From: Promethearchaeota archaeon
GTDB taxonomy: Archaea; Asgardarchaeota; Lokiarchaeia; Sigyniarchaeales; SOKP01
Reading direction: 5' to 3'
NCBI GenBank assembly: GCA_016930515.1
Contig: JAFGGO010000088.1
Location: 1-36,054, forward strand
DNA length: 36,054 nt
Each line of letters starts with the position of its first letter. Position 1 is the stretch's first letter. Under the pieces are notes generated by a model, which saw only the letters and a program-made list of their open reading frames with translations, was not told the origin of the DNA and made no database searches. Position numbers and translations under genes: made by a program. Positions 1,493 through 36,029 of the stretch are shown piece after piece.

Positions 1493-2263
1493 ATGGATCA
1501 GGAACCATTAAATCACGAGCTCCTAAGAAACGATTATACTCTTGAAAAAGCTGCTTTTCTTCAAGAAAAGTGGCGAACCAAGCTGGACGAGGAAGAAAAG
1601 GGCGAAGGTTATTTTTTAAAGAGCGAGGACGTGCGTCTCGTCGCAGGCGTGGACATATCCTTTCCAAAAGAGCTCGAACCGACTTGGGGCGTGGCCTGTG
1701 CCGTGCTCTGGGATTACGAGGAAGGAAAGATGCTAACATCCGAAATCGTGAGAGGGAATCTTCCTTTCCCTTACACGCCAGGATATCTTGGTTTTCGAGA
1801 GAATCAACTCGTTGCTCGAAGCGTCTTGAAACTAACTCGAAGACCTGACATCGTCATGTGCGACGGAAACGGAGAGATTCACCCGAAACGCTTCGGAGAA
1901 GCCACGCATTTAGGAGTTGCATTAGAATTACCCACATTTGGAGTTGCAAAAACCCCTTTCATAGGACGATCCGAGTGGAAGTCCATTGCTCGAAAGAAAG
2001 GAAACAAGACACCCGTGATTCTTATGGGCGAGAGCGAACAAGAGCCCCCCAAACTAATTCTTGGAGAAGCCATATGCCTTACCAACAATTGCAAGCCCGT
2101 ATTTCTTAGCGGAGGTTATCGAGTTTCATTAGAACTTGCCCTTGAAATCGCCTTGAATTGCTCCAAGGATCACCGTCAACCAGAACCGTTGATACTTGCT
2201 GACAATATCTCTCGAAAGGTAATTCACAAGTTCGAAAAAAATCCAGAATCCAATAAGCAATAA
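1493..2263 (+). CDS. nfi: Endonuclease V
   Basis: Motifs VAGVDISF, FPYTPGYLGFRE, CDGNGEIHP..FGEATHLG, GVAK, KPVFLSGG, RQPEP. Confidence 0.95.
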   Translation: MDQEPLNHELLRNDYTLEKAAFLQEKWRTKLDEEEKGEGYFLKSEDVRLVAGVDISFPKELEPTWGVACAVLWDYEEGKMLTSEIVRGNLPFPYTPGYLGFRENQLVARSVLKLTRRPDIVMCDGNGEIHPKRFGEATHLGVALELPTFGVAKTPFIGRSEWKSIARKKGNKTPVILMGESEQEPPKLILGEAICLTNNCKPVFLSGGYRVSLELALEIALNCSKDHRQPEPLILADNISRKVIHKFEKNPESNKQ

Positions 2264-2290
2264 ATTCAATTTAAAATTGGAGATTGCAAG

Positions 2291-2758
2291 ATGAAAAAGA
2301 ACGAGAACAAGAAAGCTTTCAAGTTGATTGGGTTAGGGGGTACTTTTGATCACCTTCACGACGGTCACAAATTTCTTCTCAGAACAGCCGTTAAATTAGG
2401 AGATCACCTCGCCATTGCGCTCGCTACCGAGGCGCTCCTAGGCTCTAAACAGCACAAACACGTTATAGAGTCGTACGATATTAGAGAAAGAGTCTTATGC
2501 TCGTATCTCGAAGGCGTATTAGGACTTACTCGCGAAAAATATACCATAATACCCTTGAACGACCCGTTTGGTTCAGCGATCACCGATCCGAACCTCGAAG
2601 CTCATGTGAGCAGTGCCGAGACATTCGAAACGGCTTTAAAGATTAACGAGATTCGCACCCAAAACGGTCTTAATCCCATGATCCTGGTCGTGATTCCAAT
2701 CGTGTGTGATGCAAAAGGAAATAAACTTAGTTCAACGAACATTCGATCGTGTCTTTAG
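2291..2758 (+). CDS. coaD: Archaeal-type phosphopantetheine adenylyltransferase
   Basis: GGTFDHLHDGH (HxGH), LNDPFG, INEIR..NGL.P, KLSSTNIR. Confidence 0.92.
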   Translation: MKKNENKKAFKLIGLGGTFDHLHDGHKFLLRTAVKLGDHLAIALATEALLGSKQHKHVIESYDIRERVLCSYLEGVLGLTREKYTIIPLNDPFGSAITDPNLEAHVSSAETFETALKINEIRTQNGLNPMILVVIPIVCDAKGNKLSSTNIRSCL

Positions 2759-2806
2759 TAAAGAATAATAAATAAAAACTAGATTAGAGAAAAGAAAGAA
2801 TTCGCA

Positions 2807-3568
2807 ATGAAGATTACATTTTTAGGAACGGCTGGAAGTACGATGTCGAAGGAAAGGGGATTTCCGTCAATCCTCGTTGACGACAACCTACTCTTGGATT
2901 GTGGCGAGGGTACGACGCAAAAATTACTAAAATTAGAAAAAATGGGCTCCATTAAAACGATATGTCTTACCCACTTGCACAACGACCACTTTCTTGGCCT
3001 ATTTTCGCTTTTATGGCATTATTGGATAAACAAGCGCACCGAGGATCTCGAGCTCATCGGTCCCGAGGGCACCAAAAAAACCGTCGAAACCATCTTGGAA
3101 TTAATCAACACGCCACAAGACATGATGAGCTCTTTTCAAGTTCGCTACAAGGAATTAAAACCAGCGAATAAATCAGCATCTGTTCAGGATAAGTCCGATT
3201 TAACTTACGCGAGCGTCGACCATCGCATTCCTGCTTTAGCTTTTCGAATAGAAAGGGACGGTAAATCGTCGTGTTATACCGGTGACTCGAAGCCCGTTCA
3301 AACCGTCATCGATCTCGCAAGCAAGTGCGATCTTCTAATCTGCGAATCCACGCTTCCAGACGAGATGGCAGACTTTGCCCACGATCACTATCACTTCACG
3401 CCTTCGGACGCTGCTCATTTGGCATCGGAATCGGATTGCAAGCGACTGGTTTTGTTTCACATCTCCTCGTTTTTTGCCAATCAGATGGATAGGTTCAAAC
3501 AACAGGCCGAAAAAGCGTTGGGAAAGTCCGTGATAATTGCGAAAGACTTGATGGAAATCGACTTGTAA
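2807..3568 (+). CDS. RNase Z-like metallo-beta-lactamase-fold hydrolase
   Basis: KITFLGT, LLDCGEG, THLHNDH, YTGDS, ICEST, LFHIS. Confidence 0.85.
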   Translation: MKITFLGTAGSTMSKERGFPSILVDDNLLLDCGEGTTQKLLKLEKMGSIKTICLTHLHNDHFLGLFSLLWHYWINKRTEDLELIGPEGTKKTVETILELINTPQDMMSSFQVRYKELKPANKSASVQDKSDLTYASVDHRIPALAFRIERDGKSSCYTGDSKPVQTVIDLASKCDLLICESTLPDEMADFAHDHYHFTPSDAAHLASESDCKRLVLFHISSFFANQMDRFKQQAEKALGKSVIIAKDLMEIDL

Positions 3569-3691: not shown

Positions 3692-4192
3692 ATGTCGAAA
3701 AAAGACGAAAATGAAGGAATTTTTCAGGAAAATAACGAAATTCAAACGAGATCATCTAATCCTTTGAATAACATATCGTTATTTATTGAGCCGTTAGACA
3801 AAACAACCGTTAAATTAATCAAATTGGGAAGGGTTAATGATTTACAAAACGCAAGAGAAAGAGCAATCCTTCTCGAAGACGAAGCAAGTTGGGATTTGGA
3901 AGAAGCGCTTTCAATACTTGATGTGCATGACGGCCGCATTCTCGTGAATAGAACATTAAAGGATGCCCGATTTAAAATGGTTAAAACCTACCTCTTAGCC
4001 GCATTTAGGGATTGGTTATATGACTATAACTCGGGGAAAGACTCTCCAAAGAATATTGAAGTCGTAACTACCAATATTAGACTCCAAGAAGTCATAAAAA
4101 AAGCATCTTTTAGACAAATCGCAGGGATGATGTGGTCCGCCTTAGCACTGGCAATTCAGAAAATGGATGTTCTTAGTTCTCCACCACTTTAA
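3692..4192 (+). CDS. Stand-alone EF-2 domain IV-like protein
   Basis: Aligns with domain IV of archaeal EF-2 and of the next ORF (SSNPLNNISLFIEPL; VKTYLLAAFRDW; RQIAGMMWSALALA). Confidence 0.8.
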   Translation: MSKKDENEGIFQENNEIQTRSSNPLNNISLFIEPLDKTTVKLIKLGRVNDLQNARERAILLEDEASWDLEEALSILDVHDGRILVNRTLKDARFKMVKTYLLAAFRDWLYDYNSGKDSPKNIEVVTTNIRLQEVIKKASFRQIAGMMWSALALAIQKMDVLSSPPL

Positions 4193-4239
4193 TCTGCACG
4201 CTATTCATAAATAAAGAATTATTTGAGCTAAACATTATC

Positions 4240-5580
4240 ATGAATGAAAATTCCAAAACGGGATATAATCAAAAAGATGAAAACAACGATTTTTATATTA
4301 TCTCAAGTCCCATCGTTTCCCTGGACATCAAATTAAAAGATCCTCACGATATTGATAAGTTAACAGTTTTAGTTAAAGAAATTACGCGACAAGATCCTAC
4401 CACATTGATTTGGATGGAAAAGGAAACGGGCAAGTTTTTGGTAGGAGGAATCGATCCGTTTCAAGTAAAACTTATTGCCGAAAATATAAATGAACGAGTA
4501 GAAATTGAGATCGGAGAACCCAAGGTTGTATATCGCGAAAAAGCGTTAAAAATAAGCGACATGTTTCCTACCAAGTCTGCCAATTCGCTCAATCGTATTT
4601 TGGTGTTTGTCGAACCCTTGGAAAAAAAATTAGAAACTCTGATAAAAACGAGAAAACTTCACGAATTACAGGATGAAAAAGATAGGATAAAAGTCCTTAC
4701 GAGCGAATTGAATTGGGACGAAAGCCAAGCAAGCAAGGTCCTTGATGTGTATCGAACATGTATTCTCGTAAACGATGGAGCAAATATGCCTTACTTTCAC
4801 AAGGTAAAATCGTATTTAGTTGCAGCCTTTAGGGATTGGATCGGAGCGGGAATAATTGCAAAAGAGCCCGTTGATGGAATAAAGGTCGTGATAAAGAACA
4901 TGGAGATTTCCGAAGATTCACGATGTGCTGGATACAACCAAATTTCGGGAATGTTATGGGCAGGAATGAGCCTGGCGATGCTCGATGCTGATCCACACCT
5001 TTTTGAACCCGAAAACGAATTCACAATTACAACACCTGCAAGTGCTGTAAGACGAGCTTTTAGGATCATACACGACAATCGTGGTAGAATATTTAATATT
5101 AAGGTGGAGAGCGATAGCGAGATGCTTCAAGGGAAGGTTCCTTCTTCGGAATCCACCACATTAATGGAAAAATTATGTTCATTGAACGAAGAAACTCGGA
5201 TTTTAGAACTTAAATTCTCTGGTTTTGAAAAGGTACCTGCAAAATACGAGGAAAAGATCATATTAAAGCTACGAAAAAGAAAGGGAATGGCAGAACAAAT
5301 ACCTCAAATCTTTTCTTGGGGTGTTGGTGTTCGTGGAAAAATGATAGAAAAGGCAAGCAACTTGGTGGATAAAATATTGTCGATTATGGAAACGGAAGTC
5401 CTTAAGGAGGTGGTCATCGATAGAAAATATCTTCTAGAATTTGCAGACCCATCTCTTTGCATTGGTTACGAGATATATTTACCGGAATTAAAACGCGAGG
5501 TCGTTTTATGGCTACATACAGTTGGAATTAAAGTCGAAGTTCAAGGACACGCCATTAAATTTGGTAAATTAAAAAAATAA
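4240..5580 (+). CDS. Truncated EF-2 paralog (domains III-IV-V, no G domain) fused to an unknown C-terminal domain
   Basis: Domain III QDPT...ETG..L.G, EPKVVYRE; domain IV KSANSLNRILVFVEPL, G.IAKEPV; domain V LFEP...RGRI, LRKRKGM; no P-loop; extra ~75 aa tail. Confidence 0.9.
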   Translation: MNENSKTGYNQKDENNDFYIISSPIVSLDIKLKDPHDIDKLTVLVKEITRQDPTTLIWMEKETGKFLVGGIDPFQVKLIAENINERVEIEIGEPKVVYREKALKISDMFPTKSANSLNRILVFVEPLEKKLETLIKTRKLHELQDEKDRIKVLTSELNWDESQASKVLDVYRTCILVNDGANMPYFHKVKSYLVAAFRDWIGAGIIAKEPVDGIKVVIKNMEISEDSRCAGYNQISGMLWAGMSLAMLDADPHLFEPENEFTITTPASAVRRAFRIIHDNRGRIFNIKVESDSEMLQGKVPSSESTTLMEKLCSLNEETRILELKFSGFEKVPAKYEEKIILKLRKRKGMAEQIPQIFSWGVGVRGKMIEKASNLVDKILSIMETEVLKEVVIDRKYLLEFADPSLCIGYEIYLPELKREVVLWLHTVGIKVEVQGHAIKFGKLKK

Positions 5581-5629
5581 ATAACATAATAAATAGCAAG
5601 TCATTCCTACAATTGAGAGGGCCTTAATA

Positions 5630-5818
5630 ATGGAACTCATATACGCTGTTCTCTTTCTTCACGAAACTTCGAAAGATATAAGCGAACGATAGATAGAAAA
5701 TATTTTAAATGCCGCAGGTCTTAACATTGGGAATTTTGAAATTAATAAGGTTTTAAATGCCTTAAAAGGCAACAGCATTAATGAAATATTAGCAATCAAA
5801 GGTTCAACATCTTATTAA
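5630..5818 (+). pseudogene. Ribosomal stalk protein P1/L12p-like N-terminal domain with in-frame TAG (not in ORF track)
   Basis: MELIYAVLFLHETSKDISER*IENILNAAGLNIGNFEINKVLNALKGNSINEILA follows the archaeal P1 pattern MEYxYAALLLH..GKEI.E..L..VL.AAG........K.L..AL.G.NI.E.L; SD-like GAGAGG upstream; TAG at 5690-5692. Confidence 0.8.
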
Positions 5819-5852
5819 CAAATCTAAACCCTCAAGCGAAGCTGAATGGTTA

Positions 5853-6080
5853 ATGCAATCGAGCTTGGAAAAAATTCTTTCAATCATTAACGAAAAACAT
5901 TTAGGCGTATTGTTATTTGATAGAAATTACCTTCTTGAAATTATTAATAAATCCCTGTGTATTGTTTACGAAATGCCCGAATTCAAACCTGAATTCGAAT
6001 TGTTTCTCAAAAATAATGGAATAAATATTAATAAAGAAGGAAATTCCATCAAATTTACGCTCCAAAAAGAGCGTATTTAA
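5853..6080 (+). CDS. Unknown ~70-aa domain homologous to the C-terminal tail of 4240-5580; probably the frameshifted 3' half of the P1-like gene
   Basis: EKILSII...DRNYLLE...SLCIVYE...E.K.E...GI....GNSIKF versus DKILSIM...DRKYLLE...SLCIGYE...ELKRE...GI....GHAIKF; frame open from 5793, overlapping the end of the P1-like frame. Confidence 0.75.
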   Translation: MQSSLEKILSIINEKHLGVLLFDRNYLLEIINKSLCIVYEMPEFKPEFELFLKNNGININKEGNSIKFTLQKERI

Positions 6081-6236
6081 ATGATTAGAAAAAAATCCGA
6101 GACTTTGAATAAAGAAACCATTAAAATTCAGCTCAATTAATTAACATTTTTATCAATAATAATTAATTACCAAAAAATTATAAGAGTCTCAAATTTGATA
6201 TAACTTAGAACTTGAATAATTTTGAGGCAAAATGTG

Positions 6237-6419
6237 ATGACAACGGAAAAGGATACAATAATTAACATGATTAAATATCTTCCTGATGACGCAAGTGCAG
6301 AAGATATTACAGAAGCAATTTATGTTAGACAAAAGATCGAAAAAGGATTAGAAGATTCTCGAAACGGAAATACAATCACTCACGATGAAGCTAAAGAGCG
6401 CTTGGAACATTGGTTATGA
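6237..6419 (+). CDS. Small putative antitoxin-like protein (type usually paired with RelE/ParE toxins)
   Basis: LPDDASAEDITEAIYVRQKIEKGLEDSRNGNTITHDEAKERL pattern; no toxin ORF follows. Confidence 0.6.
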   Translation: MTTEKDTIINMIKYLPDDASAEDITEAIYVRQKIEKGLEDSRNGNTITHDEAKERLEHWL

Positions 6420-6534: not shown

Positions 6535-8355
6535 ATGAAGATAACCGCATTAAGACTGAAGAGCCCCTTGGATAAGTACGAGGGAGACATCCATTTCGAA
6601 TCGCTCGACCTCATCAATGTGATTCTGGGCAAGAACAACTCAGGCAAGACGCGAACGCTCAAGCAGGTCTTTAGCACCTTGTCCAAAGAATGCTTTGAGG
6701 GATACGGGGACTCGAGCGCTATGAGGAAAATCGAGCTCGAAATATCAATCAAGGAGTTTGAAGAATTAATCGTTAAATACGAATCTAAAAACCCCTCAAG
6801 CATCGAGACCTCCACCATTCTTGATTGTTTGCGTCAATTATTGCAAGAAAAGGCGTTTTCCAATGTTTGTGATAATAATTTAATCGTTCGTTTCGAGCGG
6901 GAAGATACAAATCAACCGCTTGTCTTTAACTTGGAAGAAAAAACCTTCAAGAATGCTCGCCTTTCGTCTAAAATTAAATTCATAAGCGAAAAAGTTAAAA
7001 AAACGGTAATATCTCCAAACGATTTGTTTTTAACCCTTAAAGAAGGGTTCAAAGCGATCCTGCTTCCCTCGACGCGCTCCTTGGAGTCGAGTAGGACAAT
7101 ATTCGAATCCGTCCAGATGTCTTACACCAGGGATGTCTTGACGGACATCCTCGAGAACGGCTTTACTTCCAAAAGCGTGCCTAACGCCGACCTCAAACAC
7201 TTTGACCATTATTTAATCCCCAACTTCATCGTATTGTTGCGGTTAGTCCTCGAAGGAAAGATCGACCTCGTGGAGCGCTCGTTCTACCAAGAATTCGTGG
7301 GCGTGCTCGAAAGGATCTTTCCCGAGCTCCTGCTTGAAATCGAAACGAGGGATTTCACATTCATTGTAGAGGGCAATGACACCGAAATGGAGCGGGTTAT
7401 CGAGGATTGGAAGAGACTGGGACACGGAACGCAGCAGATCATGTCCATCATGCTTCTCATGATGCTTCCAGGAGATTTTCTCTATTTTATAGACGAACCC
7501 GAGATAGGACTTCATCCCGGCCTTCAAACCAAGTTTCTTCAATTCGTTCGGGAGGTAGTCGTTGGAGATCCCAGGTACTCCAAGCAAGTCTTTTTCTCCA
7601 CCCACTCCACGAGTTTCATAAATTTTCTTGAAAATTGCGCCCATTTTATTACACGAAAAGAAGGAAAGATGTTTTATATAGAATCGCTTAATAGAGAGAA
7701 TCTCCAACTCATTCGTGGCGAATTGGGACTCAAACCGAGCGACCTACTTCAGGCCAATGGGGTCGTGTGGGTTGAAGGCCCTTCAGATGTTTTTTACGTG
7801 AAAATGCTTTTCAAGTGCTTCGATGTGGACTTGGACGCCATAGATGTGCTTATCGCCACCTATGGTAGTTCGGGGCACTTAATCGCCAACCACTTCACGC
7901 TCGCCTTGATGGAGCGTTTACATCCGAATTTTGTGGTCATTACCGATAGCGACAAGGAATACGAGCGAGAGCGGATCAATCCCGCCCTCAGGCGCAAGAA
8001 AGACGAGTTCGAAATTGCGGGACACTTGGTCTGGATCATAGATCATTATCGAGACATCGAAGGGACCATCCCCCAAGATGCGATTTCTGATTTTTTTCGG
8101 GTTCGACGAAAGCTCTCACCAGAACAATATAAAAAACCGTATTCACGCTTGAAAGATTATGTAACCTACCTCAAGCAATTGGGTTTCGTGAGTCCGTACC
8201 GGGGATATCGAAAGACTCGAGACGCTCCACAGATAGCTCGAATCGTATTGAGGAACCCTAAATACAGGGAGAGCGTCAAGTCAAACGGATATATAAAGTA
8301 CAACATCGAACGCCTTTCAGTAGAAATATTCAAGTGGATAAAGACGATTCAATAG
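6535..8355 (+). CDS. OLD-family ATP-dependent nuclease (ABC ATPase + TOPRIM)
   Basis: Walker A GKNNSGKT, signature LGHGTQQ, Walker B/D-loop FIDEPEIGLHP, H-loop STHS, TOPRIM VWVEGPSD and ITDSD. Confidence 0.88.
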   Translation: MKITALRLKSPLDKYEGDIHFESLDLINVILGKNNSGKTRTLKQVFSTLSKECFEGYGDSSAMRKIELEISIKEFEELIVKYESKNPSSIETSTILDCLRQLLQEKAFSNVCDNNLIVRFEREDTNQPLVFNLEEKTFKNARLSSKIKFISEKVKKTVISPNDLFLTLKEGFKAILLPSTRSLESSRTIFESVQMSYTRDVLTDILENGFTSKSVPNADLKHFDHYLIPNFIVLLRLVLEGKIDLVERSFYQEFVGVLERIFPELLLEIETRDFTFIVEGNDTEMERVIEDWKRLGHGTQQIMSIMLLMMLPGDFLYFIDEPEIGLHPGLQTKFLQFVREVVVGDPRYSKQVFFSTHSTSFINFLENCAHFITRKEGKMFYIESLNRENLQLIRGELGLKPSDLLQANGVVWVEGPSDVFYVKMLFKCFDVDLDAIDVLIATYGSSGHLIANHFTLALMERLHPNFVVITDSDKEYERERINPALRRKKDEFEIAGHLVWIIDHYRDIEGTIPQDAISDFFRVRRKLSPEQYKKPYSRLKDYVTYLKQLGFVSPYRGYRKTRDAPQIARIVLRNPKYRESVKSNGYIKYNIERLSVEIFKWIKTIQ

Positions 8356-11058: not shown

Positions 11059-11508
11059 GTGTTACTTATGCTCAACGAATCGCGAAAAAAGAGATATAAG
11101 CAAAAATTGGAAAGATTGGGAGAATATAATCAACTTTTTAAAAATTGGTTTAGTGGTTGGAAACTATCCGATTTAGAACAGCAACGCGATTTTGAAAAAA
11201 TTTTTGCCATTTATCATTCAATACAGCTAATTATAGAGGTAATTACCGATATAATTGCGATGATATTAAAGGATTTATCGCTTGTTGTTGAGGATAATTA
11301 CACGAATTTTGAAAAACTTTTTAAAAAGAAGATGATTTCAAACGATTTATTCCAAGGATTGAAGAAATTAAATGGATTAAGGAATAGGATAGTTCACGAT
11401 TACAATGGAATTATCGACGAAGTAGTGTGGGTTTCAATGGAAGAAAATAATAAATATATAGACGAATTTGAGTCGATCGTGAAAAAATGGTTAGAACAGA
11501 ACACTTAG
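11059..11508 (+). CDS. HepT-like (DUF86) HEPN RNase toxin
   Basis: RNRIVHDY (Rx4H + Y) motif; overlaps the MNT gene. Confidence 0.9.
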   Translation: MLLMLNESRKKRYKQKLERLGEYNQLFKNWFSGWKLSDLEQQRDFEKIFAIYHSIQLIIEVITDIIAMILKDLSLVVEDNYTNFEKLFKKKMISNDLFQGLKKLNGLRNRIVHDYNGIIDEVVWVSMEENNKYIDEFESIVKKWLEQNT

Positions 11509-11885
11509 AACATGTTAAAAGAATAATAAATCGAGTAAAGGAAGATTTTAACTTTATTAAGGCGAATCCTAAAATCCTTGGTGTAATTCTATATGGTTCC
11601 AAAATTCACGGTTTTCATCATCAAAAAAGCGATATTGACATTTGCATCGCTACAACTTATGAAAAACTCGTGGATGCTTATAATTATATTATCGAAAATA
11701 TTAACTTCAATCAAGAAATCTACGACATTCGATTCTTTAACGAGCTTCCGCTTGTCATCCAAGGAGAAATAATGGAAAATGGAATAATAGCAATTTCAAA
11801 CGATATATATTCCTTAAAAGAGTACTTTTTTACATATCGAAAAATGTACGACGATTGGAAATTCAAGATTGAACATTGTATTTAA
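11487..11885 (+). CDS. Minimal nucleotidyltransferase (MntA-like antitoxin)
   Basis: ILYGS...SDIDI motif; FNELPL.IQ.EI..NG. Confidence 0.9.
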   Translation: MVRTEHLEHVKRIINRVKEDFNFIKANPKILGVILYGSKIHGFHHQKSDIDICIATTYEKLVDAYNYIIENINFNQEIYDIRFFNELPLVIQGEIMENGIIAISNDIYSLKEYFFTYRKMYDDWKFKIEHCI

Positions 11886-25910: not shown

Positions 25911-28121
25911 ATGTTAGACATATTAAAATTACGATTTAAAGAAAAAATTAAGTCAAGTTTTAAAGTCGAGAACGGTTTTCTCAGGCTCTTACTCGTGACT
26001 GTTTCTGTCGTCATTCTAATACAACTATTTATCGTTCCAACTCATTTTGAATTTTATCGTGATTCTGGGTTTAGTGGATATATGTTTTATGGTTTAAGGT
26101 TTTTTCATAGTTATAATATATACAATTATAGATACGGTTTATATTTTGAATTTCACCCCAAATATTTTTTTCCCATGATAACCATGATTTTCGCCTTAAT
26201 ATTATCATTACTACTCGCCATTAAAATCAATAAGTTCAATAAAGATGAGATATTAAAAGTTGGAATTATTAGTACCATCTTATTTGTAATTACATTTATC
26301 ACATATATATATATAAGTGTGGTATTTGATTACTATTGCTTTTCTTATCTTTTTGTGGCAAATCTATTAATGATACTCGTTTATGCCATTCTTATGCTCA
26401 TATTAACTATTCAATTATCAAGAAAACACGATAAACCTGATAAGATAAAAAAAAGGTTCTTGAGAAAACATCAACTTAAACCATCAATGTATCATGTACG
26501 AATGCTATTTTTTGTCGTTTCTATCTTACTGATCGTTCAGTTTTTTATTCCAACCTTTATTTCTATTAATCTTCTTAATACGCCTCCATTATATTATATC
26601 TATTTTTTCTCTGGAATAATCTTTACTCTTGATGGAAGCAAAACATTATACATTTCTTTTGACCCCTTTTGCTTTTTCCAAATAATACCTCAGGCTGCTG
26701 CATTAATATTAATAATTATACTGATTATAAAGATAGAAACGCTTGAAAGGAAACAAATTTTATTTTTAGGGATTGCCAGTGCGATCCTTCTTATTCTTTC
26801 TCCAATTTTATACTTCGGGGCATATTATATGATAGGCGGCACATTCGTTCCATTTAATACGCTTTCTTGCTTTAATTTACATTTTATTATTTTTTGCGTG
26901 TTTTTAGTTCTTTTAGGATCTATACATGTCTCAAACAGAGCTAAACCGTCATATTACAATATCGCTCGAAAATTAAGCTTGTTTTTAAGGAAGTATCGAG
27001 TGGAAGTAGTTGCATTTTCTATCTTTTTTATTTATTTATATGCGCTGAGAGTCCTAACGCCTTTTATTCCGGCTTATGAAAACAGTTTCCTCGATTGGGA
27101 CATGTATCTGATGATGTCAAGAGATATTACATCCATTTTTAAGAGGCAAATCGTCGCTCCTTTTTGTTATAGGCCGTTAATACCACTTCTAGCGGGAATA
27201 TTACCCTTTGACTTGCAAACAAGCTACGCCCTTATTGTGTTCCTTTCCGCCTATTTCACGGGCATATTACTATACGCAACGCTCCGGTTAAGATTTAGCA
27301 AGAGTATGAGTTTAATGGGCTTATTATTTTTTATTCTCTTGAGTTATATTCCAAAAGCAAGCTTGATATCTTTTGGACCATTTAATCTTGGTTTCATCAA
27401 CGCAGCGTTTATTTTCGTCTATTTCGTTGATTTTCCTGCGGGGTTTTTCTTGATGGCGTGTTTTTATTGCATATTCTCTCAAAGAAAAAAAGGTTATCTC
27501 ATTTGTTTATTATTAGGAACTCTCACGAAAGAAATAGTTTTCGGAACGATCCCCGTTTTTATCGCTTACGAAATAATGATAAACCAAGACCCTCGTAATC
27601 TAAAAAAAATGGGAAACATTTTATTGAAAAACACCAAATATTTTGCACCTGGAATATGTGCTTACCTCTTATTGCGCCTTATTGTCGTTCCCATTCCTGT
27701 TATAGAAACATCTTGGTATGGTTCTTACAACAATAGCGATTACGGTTCCATCGAAATGTTTTTAGTTTTTTGGGACATGAGAATTGCAGAAATCTTCTAT
27801 CAAGGAGCGCTTTACGATTGGTTTATCGGCGTGTGGAGCCCCATGATCATTGCTTTCTGCTGCTTGAATAATTGGAAAAGAATGAAACATTGGTTCGGCA
27901 TATTTGGCATATTTATGTTGTTTTGCTATACTCAGATATTTTTAGGATTCGCCACTACTAGATATATAGTGTTTGGTTTTTACCCAATTATATTTCTAGC
28001 AGTTTCAGGTCTGGAGGGAATATTCAATATAAAACTTTTAAGAAAACACTACGAGATTAGTTTTATAAAAGTCGAAATCAGTTCAATAAAACATCAATAT
28101 TTGTTATTTAAATCCACCTAG
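25911..28121 (+). CDS. Large polytopic membrane protein; duplicated N-terminal TM module plus a GT-C-glycosyltransferase-like C-terminal half
   Basis: DWDMYL.M, APFCYRPLIPLLA, VDFP, LGTLTKE, TTRY; internal repeat in the first ~340 aa. Confidence 0.6.
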   Translation: MLDILKLRFKEKIKSSFKVENGFLRLLLVTVSVVILIQLFIVPTHFEFYRDSGFSGYMFYGLRFFHSYNIYNYRYGLYFEFHPKYFFPMITMIFALILSLLLAIKINKFNKDEILKVGIISTILFVITFITYIYISVVFDYYCFSYLFVANLLMILVYAILMLILTIQLSRKHDKPDKIKKRFLRKHQLKPSMYHVRMLFFVVSILLIVQFFIPTFISINLLNTPPLYYIYFFSGIIFTLDGSKTLYISFDPFCFFQIIPQAAALILIIILIIKIETLERKQILFLGIASAILLILSPILYFGAYYMIGGTFVPFNTLSCFNLHFIIFCVFLVLLGSIHVSNRAKPSYYNIARKLSLFLRKYRVEVVAFSIFFIYLYALRVLTPFIPAYENSFLDWDMYLMMSRDITSIFKRQIVAPFCYRPLIPLLAGILPFDLQTSYALIVFLSAYFTGILLYATLRLRFSKSMSLMGLLFFILLSYIPKASLISFGPFNLGFINAAFIFVYFVDFPAGFFLMACFYCIFSQRKKGYLICLLLGTLTKEIVFGTIPVFIAYEIMINQDPRNLKKMGNILLKNTKYFAPGICAYLLLRLIVVPIPVIETSWYGSYNNSDYGSIEMFLVFWDMRIAEIFYQGALYDWFIGVWSPMIIAFCCLNNWKRMKHWFGIFGIFMLFCYTQIFLGFATTRYIVFGFYPIIFLAVSGLEGIFNIKLLRKHYEISFIKVEISSIKHQYLLFKST

Positions 28122-32659: not shown

Positions 32660-33442
32660 TTAATCAACCCATTTATATACATGTGAGATAGACTGAGATC
32701 CCGCTTGTTGAATCCTTCCTTCAGTGTTTTGTTCCACCAGATGCCACCCATGTAATTTAATTGTTTTATGTTCTATATGGCAGATCTTTCCCCTTACAAA
32801 TTGCTTTCGAGGAGTATTAATCAATTCGTCTGCAATATGAGAATTTCCAATCGAATCTTTCCCAATTCTCTGCTTTTTAAAAATTACATCCACATCTCCA
32901 TTCATCTCTTTTTCGATTTCTTCCAACTCTTTAGTCGAGGCGGGAAGAAAAAACCATTCTCCTTGTCTTTTAATTCGATTTGTGTTTTTTTCCCGTTTTG
33001 CAACGCTTTTGGGCTTGAGAATTCGATGAGCGTCATTAACCTTGTTAATCGGTCCTAAATCGCTTGGAAGTTCTGCGATAAAAAGATGGGACTCGTCCAT
33101 TCCCATTAAATATTTTCTTAACACATCAGGGGTGGTTTGGGTTACTTCGTCGTATTTTCTTTCTGTTGGGTTCCAAACGGTTACTTTATAGTCGCGAGAG
33201 GGTTCCTTAACCATGAGTATCACTTGTTGGTGTTTAAAGTTTGCGTCAATCACTCGAATATCGTTTTCTTCGTGGCCTCGATAGATTCGAAAGTATTCCG
33301 ATTTTTTCTTTTTACCTCTTGTATCGATGGACATTTGAAAAACATCTCGGTTATTAACTCCAAATCTATGAGTTGTTAAGGGATCTCTTTCGATTTTTAA
33401 GGGAACCATTGCTTTTTGAAACCACAGTTTTATATCTTGCAT
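32660..33442 (-). CDS. Hypothetical protein with RQGEWFF and His motifs
   Basis: LMGMDESHLFIAEL, RQGEWFFLP, SHIA, VRGKICHIEHKTIKL..WH...QNTE. Confidence 0.7.
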   Translation of the reverse strand: MQDIKLWFQKAMVPLKIERDPLTTHRFGVNNRDVFQMSIDTRGKKKKSEYFRIYRGHEENDIRVIDANFKHQQVILMVKEPSRDYKVTVWNPTERKYDEVTQTTPDVLRKYLMGMDESHLFIAELPSDLGPINKVNDAHRILKPKSVAKREKNTNRIKRQGEWFFLPASTKELEEIEKEMNGDVDVIFKKQRIGKDSIGNSHIADELINTPRKQFVRGKICHIEHKTIKLHGWHLVEQNTEGRIQQAGSQSISHVYKWVD

Positions 33443-35213: not shown

Positions 35214-36029
35214 ATGACACAAGTATTCAAGGTTAATCCCGACGGTACGACCACGGAACTTACTGCCGATAGACCGATAAAAGACATCATGAGCACTGAA
35301 GAAGTATATGTAATAGTTGCGGATGATATACGAAAGATATTCTTGTGGTTAGGAGAAAAAAGTAGCGTTAGGTTGAAGTTCGTCGGAGCCAAGCGTAGTC
35401 AAGACATTCGAGGTCAAGTCGGACTTCATTACGGTTCCCAGTCCATAGACGAAGGAAACGAGCCACCAGAACTTATAAAACTCATGGGAGGAAAAACTGA
35501 AGCAGGAATTGCCCAAGAAATAAAATCAGATGAGGGAGGAGCTCCCGCTGTTAATCCCTTGAGACAAAAAGCTATTTTTGATCCTCCCCGTCCTGCTGAA
35601 GGGATGAATATAGCGGGAAGTAGGGATAGAGCTGCAACGAATACCGGACCGCTCTACACGGAATCGGGGGGCATCTACCAATTCGTTCAGGAAGATCAGC
35701 AAGTCAATTTCGATCAGATAATGCAAAAATTAGAAGAGATCAAAACTCCCTTAGGATACGAAAGGGAATTGATTATTGTGGGAAATCACGCATATTCTAT
35801 TGTTGAAAAAGTTCAGACCTTTTTAGGCAAGAAACAAGTTGAAAAGGTAATGGAAAAGGTTGGGACGATTCCCGAAGGCGTATTCTTTGCTGAAGATTAC
35901 TCGCCGCGAGTGCTTTCTGAAAACGGAAAGATATTAGCCATTGAATTTTTGAAACGCCAGGCGACTACAAGCCAATCCAAGAGCAAGTCGGAAATTCTAA
36001 AAGATCAAATTAAAAGCCAATTAGGTTAA
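35214..36029 (+). CDS. Asgard-type gelsolin-domain protein with a C-terminal unknown domain
   Basis: EVYVIV....KIFLWLGEKSS...KF.GA.....IR....IDEGNEPPEL fits a gelsolin/villin repeat; followed by a low-complexity linker and a second domain. Confidence 0.75.
   Translation: MTQVFKVNPDGTTTELTADRPIKDIMSTEEVYVIVADDIRKIFLWLGEKSSVRLKFVGAKRSQDIRGQVGLHYGSQSIDEGNEPPELIKLMGGKTEAGIAQEIKSDEGGAPAVNPLRQKAIFDPPRPAEGMNIAGSRDRAATNTGPLYTESGGIYQFVQEDQQVNFDQIMQKLEEIKTPLGYERELIIVGNHAYSIVEKVQTFLGKKQVEKVMEKVGTIPEGVFFAEDYSPRVLSENGKILAIEFLKRQATTSQSKSKSEILKDQIKSQLG

Follow-up and report, generated by a model that had tools for sequence, protein, structure and literature searches.

The window, a stretch of 36,054 nucleotides corresponding to contig C140 of a Lokiarchaeial genome (G000; 4.0 Mb, 94% complete), carries a GTPase-less derivative of archaeal elongation factor 2 (aEF-2), hereafter B, which is maintained by weak purifying selection and ends in an undescribed domain, X, found on many unrelated proteins of one Lokiarchaeial family. 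We tentatively prefer, with slightly less than an even chance of being right, the view that B could be a non-catalytic mimic of the EF-2 surface, a decoy or competitor for which X would be a generic adaptor, within a family-wide set of genes undergoing birth and death. The origin of the genes, the selection acting on them, the promiscuity of X and the death of the neighbouring gene C are well supported, and every functional step is one that we infer. The locus is arranged as follows.

1493..3568, + strand: conserved cluster of endonuclease V, CoaD-like cytidylyltransferase and RNase Z-like metallo-beta-lactamase (MBL), with A and B at its 3' end
3692..4192, + strand: gene A, 166 aa, incomplete copy of EF-2 domain IV without X (similarity to aEF-2)
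4240..5580, + strand: gene B, 446 aa, EF-2 domains III-IV-V, C-terminal helix and X (Pfam)
5341..5577, + strand: domain X of B, about 79 aa, winged-helix-like, family motif IERKYLPEIF (alignments)
5630..5818, + strand: gene C, broken aP1 N-terminal domain, pseudogene (TAG at codon 21, TAA at codon 63)
5853..6080, + strand: gene C, second X copy, 75-aa ORF from ATG, in another frame than the P1 piece
6222..6419, + strand: small antitoxin-like ORF
6535..8355, + strand: OLD/GajA-like ABC ATPase-TOPRIM nuclease, syntenic in the sister species G003

Three co-oriented frames had been reported here by the first-pass annotation, and all three are present where it had placed them. Gene A, taken to be EF-2 domain IV alone, does hold a piece of domain IV (42% identity to about residues 482-645 of the G000 aEF-2, E 7e-38), but not the complete domain, as the C-terminal segment of this discontinuous domain is missing. 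The reading of B as EF-2 domains III-V followed by X is borne out: Pfam matches to EFG_III (21-91), EFG_IV (145-225) and EFG_C (254-338) are followed by X at about aa 368-446, the G domain (G1-G5) and domain II being absent. In the model of the G003 orthologue of B, domains III-V form an EF-2-like unit to which X is tethered by a flexible linker; this model matches archaeal EF-2 structures with an E of 3e-36 and an rmsd of 2.6, and B is thus predicted to have the EF-2 fold in domains III-V. The diphthamide loop with its target His is not conserved in B, where Cys takes the place of this His, and it varies even among close B orthologues. As G000 has an intact canonical aEF-2 on contig C40, its own aEF-2p on contig C67 and an intact P1 on contig C134, in a uL11-uL1-P0-P1 cluster, A, B and C are extras.

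B is 48% identical to canonical aEF-2, against 20% to aEF-2p, and all five truncated EF-2 copies stand in the tree beside the aEF-2 of G000 and G003, with a moderate support of 85/75 at a place where long branches may attract each other; their branches measure 0.8-2.8, compared with 0.02-0.06 for the aEF-2 of G000 and G003. Alignments and tree place the origin of A and B in canonical aEF-2 and not in aEF-2p. Canonical Asgard aEF-2 (Narrowe et al., 2018; PMC6143161), the direct parent of B, has the same fold and is 45-56% identical over III-V and the C-terminal helix, whereas B has no G, G' or II, shows a degenerate diphthamide loop, has gained a C-terminal X, diverges many times faster at the protein level and is dispensable. 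aEF-2p, the EF-2 paralog of Asgard archaea and Korarchaeota, is ancient, keeps G1-G5 and has eroded domain IV loops that make it unlikely to translocate (PMC6143161). B resembles it as an EF-2 duplicate with eroded domain IV loops, but has no GTPase motifs, stands outside aEF-2p in the tree and is confined to part of one genus, in line with the earlier claim that its architecture differs from those of known Asgard aEF-2 paralogs. The tail of aP1 docks in a groove formed by G and G' (PMC5887453), and the switching of EF-2 relies on its domains I-III (PMC8244253). B, which has neither G nor G', can therefore not work as a translocase, and known EF-2 biology implies that it can neither hydrolyse GTP nor be recruited by the aP1 tail.

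Full-length relatives of B with the same layout are encoded in G003 (P0002) and on a JGI contig (P0100, on L003). In G003, the gene lies between the EndoV-CoaD-MBL cluster and the toxin-antitoxin remnant with the OLD nuclease, and neither A nor C accompanies it. The order MBL-A-B recurs in an independent run, SRR11241199 (L116), on a contig that stops at the X junction and shows a duplicated 5' end; there, an A orthologue of the same size and 60% identity is found upstream of the B orthologue. An ENA contig (L100) carries the last EF-2 helix only, joined to X. The MBL cluster is present without B in three genomes of the genus (G002, G004 and G005), and no further derived EF-2 copy was found among 135 genomes of the family. 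Several candidates were discarded: P0049 (498 aa), one of three such 'G-less' EF-2 entries, results from a mis-called start of a full aEF-2; the surplus EF-2 matches of G002 and G028 come from a split gene and from a 97% duplicate; and P0137 is identical to the G003 gene and therefore not an independent relative. L003 holds another EF-2 copy (L003:2512-3261) that begins at domain III, lies three genes downstream of P0100 and is truncated by the end of the contig; loop 2 of this copy has the sequence SPNKLN, as in non-Loki aEF-2.

In the comparison with L116, B has a dN/dS of 0.31-0.43 and A one of 0.31-0.46, and the bootstrap intervals of both stay below 1; only this comparison is relied on, as dS between G000 and G003 is near saturation. 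The value for aEF-2 itself is about 0.02. The lowest values within B are those of domain V and the tail (0.18-0.24). When neutral evolution is simulated, the frame stays open in none of 500 runs for B and in 1.3% for A. These results show A and B to be under weak purifying selection. B, with orthologues elsewhere and a dN/dS below 1, is not the one-off, neutrally decaying duplicate that had been envisaged as a way for the initial proposal to fail. Of the positions that never vary in Loki aEF-2, 50-62% are retained in B-type copies, compared with 32-51% at variable sites. About half of the invariant residues are gone from B, the diphthamide loop included, and three of the four B-type copies no longer have the domain V motif. 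Selection keeps B whole and folded, most EF-2-specific residues being released from constraint. A scan for promoters and terminators gave chance-level results.

These genes could also be products of domain shuffling without any EF-2-related role, in which a folded scaffold is what selection maintains, perhaps for the sake of some partner bound by X or by a new surface, and in which the chimeras turn over fast. This reading, which we consider possible but rather doubtful, agrees with the slight enrichment of EF-2-invariant residues, with the decay series that A, the broken C, the X fusion of L100 and the duplicated end of L116 would form, and with the patchy, lineage-specific architectures general in Asgard archaea (bioRxiv 10.1101/2020.10.19.343400). 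It fits less well with the common start of all four long EF-2 copies at the domain II/III boundary, with the intactness of B in G003 across a near-saturated dS and with the retention of loop 2 and of the basic C-terminal RKRKG helix in B-type copies.

Gene C, a pseudogene, was found in a single genome. Its P1 piece (5630-5815) is 44% identical to the intact P1 of G000 (E 6e-11) and is interrupted in frame by TAG (5690-5692) and TAA (5816-5818); neither an intact N-terminal dimerisation domain, given the internal TAG, nor a hydrophobic C-terminal tail is left. Its X is 45% identical to that of B (pairwise E 8e-15) and nests in the EF-2-X clade of the X tree, with a support of 98/87 together with the two B domains. 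A Logan contig of run X1, a run that may represent the source sample itself, has both breaks too and is identical there. Pyrrolysine read-through of the TAG was considered and ruled out: a PylS search gave nothing above cut-off and TAG closes 12% of the long ORFs, so TAG is an ordinary stop, and the frame change remains regardless. C had been described as a disrupted P1 N-terminal domain plus X; both parts and the disruption are there, but a former single protein is not confirmed. The codon pattern of C shows former protein coding. One indel separates the two parts from a joint frame, and a P1-X fusion may once have existed; no intact one was found in any search, nor any other divergent P1 copy in 134 genomes of the family.

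The first-pass annotation had gone further, proposing that P1-X sits on the ribosomal stalk and recruits B by X-X pairing, as a private stalk/factor pair. Its premise that the native P1/EF-2 interface is missing on both sides stands, as B has no G/G' groove and C no C-terminal tail. The two X copies are adjacent and each other's closest relatives, and C was once protein-coding, all of which would suit such a pair. Yet C is broken and known once, the fusion itself is conjectural, G003 and L003 have B without C, and X is carried by a dozen unrelated partners, only 6-8 of 59 X proteins being linked to translation. With the P1 half broken here, missing from the syntenic locus of G003 and without a counterpart elsewhere in the family, B therefore persists without it. 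The fusion of X to many unrelated proteins is one of the two outcomes that the first-pass annotation had itself named as refuting its proposal, and the module as a whole is not supported and seems to us highly improbable. A prediction of the X-X homodimer, with a score of 0.18, speaks neither for nor against the pairing.

X is confidently modelled (pLDDT 92) with a helix-strand-helix-helix-hairpin topology, and is predicted to be a winged-helix-like domain that has not been described. Named winged-helix families (SelB WH, ESCRT-II, PCI and ScpA) give weak best matches, all tied, at Z 5.0-5.7. No sequence match was found in Pfam, NCBIfam or PDB, Foldseek gave nothing below E 0.001 on PDB and BFVD, and X was found neither in viral contigs with two queries nor in the ESM Atlas when searched by features. 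A likeness to a ribonucleotide reductase intein segment (L079:3072-3374 in G098; G074:C63), over 40 columns with an hhalign probability of 83%, is probably due to chance.

The X profile matches 36-38 of 135 genomes of one Lokiarchaeial family and none of 265 other Asgard genomes. Among the 59 X proteins, partners include roadblock (20), TBP (4), uS13 (3), EF-2 III-V (3) and receiver (2) domains, with single Pfam matches to Rab-like and proteasome (alpha) proteins; gelsolin-like and profilin-like domains, the PAN coiled coil, actin and the Cdc48 N-domain are further partners. X stands at either end of its partner, some proteins consisting of X alone or in tandem, and the X tree requires several independent captures. 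Judged from these sequences, X is shown to be promiscuous, roaming among genes of one family. Its fusions have dN/dS values of 0.09-0.55 (purifying). Two more X genes are present in G000, a roadblock-X (L056:2682-3332, C76) and an X-TBP (L018:937-1851, C138), the latter being a third TBP, which lacks the acidic tail. Adjacent X genes, X-roadblock and gelsolin-like-X-TPR-like, occur at L051:279-2253 (G094:C85), the only other tandem X pair seen.

Other derived core-gene copies were met on the way. A second uS13 copy of G000 (L126; G000:C159:8746-9183, minus strand), of 146 aa, 64% identical, with an altered C-terminus and without X, lies directly upstream of the canonical uS13, in tandem. Half-TBP fragments (L047:532-876 and L057:2185-2538) lie two genes from uS13-X fusions, so derived core-gene copies cluster at other sites too. 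The sole P1 match of G016 (G016:C224:11665-11793) lies inside a 401-aa open frame, perhaps by P0-P1 read-through or assembly error.

One could imagine that B alone binds the ribosome independently of GTP, as a plug of the A site or factor site in hibernation, stalling or recycling, X being an extra anchor loosely like the SelB winged helices. The predicted III-V fold, the conserved loop 2 and basic helix, the lowest dN/dS falling on domain V and the tail, and the presence of uS13 and P1 among X partners or neighbours would agree with this. We nevertheless hold it to be unlikely: both the diphthamide loop and the domain V motif have degenerated, the mean net charge of X is close to zero and X is not basic on average, many unrelated winged helices match X as well as SelB does (Z 5.3), and B occurs in few genomes, unlike a housekeeping dormancy factor.

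The reading that we prefer, B as a surface mimic, draws on the aEF-2 origin of B, the selection on A and B, the release of EF-2-specific constraint and the range of X fusions. Several X partners lack the portion that does the work: Cdc48 is represented by its N-domain and PAN by its coiled coil only, the P-loop of the Rab-like partner is altered and uS13 is C-truncated. Intact TBP and uS13 genes coexist with the fusions in most genomes checked. B would be a recent, rapidly evolving duplicate that covers the 3' half of canonical aEF-2, which arose in the ancestor of the G000 species and its sister species and then captured X; A would be a further, shorter aEF-2 copy, and C a local X copy behind a P1 duplicate, now dead. 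Folded as a soluble III-V unit, B could compete for, or bait, proteins that recognise the C-terminal half of EF-2, such as viral, toxin or regulatory ligands, with X serving as a generic protein-protein adaptor, and X-tagged copies of core machines would be born, kept for some time and lost. A diphthamide-directed toxin is an unlikely ligand, as no Dph1/2 gene was found. Several points weigh against this mimic. Its ligand, expression and binding are all supposed; X genes lie among ordinary genes, outside recognisable defence islands (judged by eye); X evolves as fast as its partner or faster and is no more constrained, which would suit a passenger no less than an adaptor; not every partner is dead, the X-TBP of G000 keeping its four DNA-wedging Phe; and A and the tandem uS13 copy are derived copies without X.

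A bolder version, to which we give little credit, would make X the mark of a family-wide bait library, catching viral or toxin proteins that target the core machinery, and signalling through a single X-binding receptor, with inactive or clipped EF-2, uS13, TBP, actin, gelsolin, proteasome alpha, PAN, Cdc48, roadblock and small GTPases as its putative members. If true, an archaeal relative of eukaryotes would be making use of integrated decoys. Plant NLR integrated decoys and the effector-associated adaptor domains of prokaryotic conflict systems place fast-evolving, often inactive copies of host targets on a common module. X fusions may be likened to them in these respects, but X was not found on any NLR, NTPase or effector, nor was there a conserved neighbourhood.

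In the lineage-specific, multidomain signature proteins of Asgard archaea, which are patchily distributed, roadblock, small GTPase, DENN, gelsolin and profilin domains are shuffled and fused (bioRxiv 10.1101/2020.10.19.343400). The X set differs from them by its one undescribed common domain and by partners that include universal machinery (EF-2, uS13, TBP, proteasome alpha, PAN and Cdc48). Patchy domain shuffling in Asgard archaea is thus already known; what is new is an unnamed domain common to copies of universal machinery and a selected, G-less EF-2, neither of which is described in the literature searched. The domain, undescribed and restricted to one family, tags copies of machines at the very centre of the cell. 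Should these copies be decoys, they would amount to a list of host targets of Asgard viruses; even otherwise, marker-gene trees and tallies of eukaryotic signature proteins can be misled by copies of EF-2, uS13, TBP and actin of this kind.

Around the locus, PADLOC gave no match for B, and the A-B-C locus is the only one at which a toxin-antitoxin remnant and OLD nuclease adjoin an X gene (neighbourhoods judged by eye). The nuclease gene (6535-8355) has a GC content of 45%, compared with 35% for the genome. The antitoxin-like gene (6222-6419) is intact in the window and its ParE toxin seems to be gone, whereas in G003 (L001:9435-9891) the toxin is intact and the antitoxin frameshifted. Further along the window, ORFs of 736, 260 and 271 aa without Pfam match (25911-28121, 32660-33442 and 35214-36029) are found, the first with two NosD beta-helix genes upstream, as well as a HepT-like RNase and minimal nucleotidyltransferase pair of the HEPN-MNT toxin-antitoxin type (11059-11885) and a 550-aa DDE transposase (PF01609; 15064-16716).
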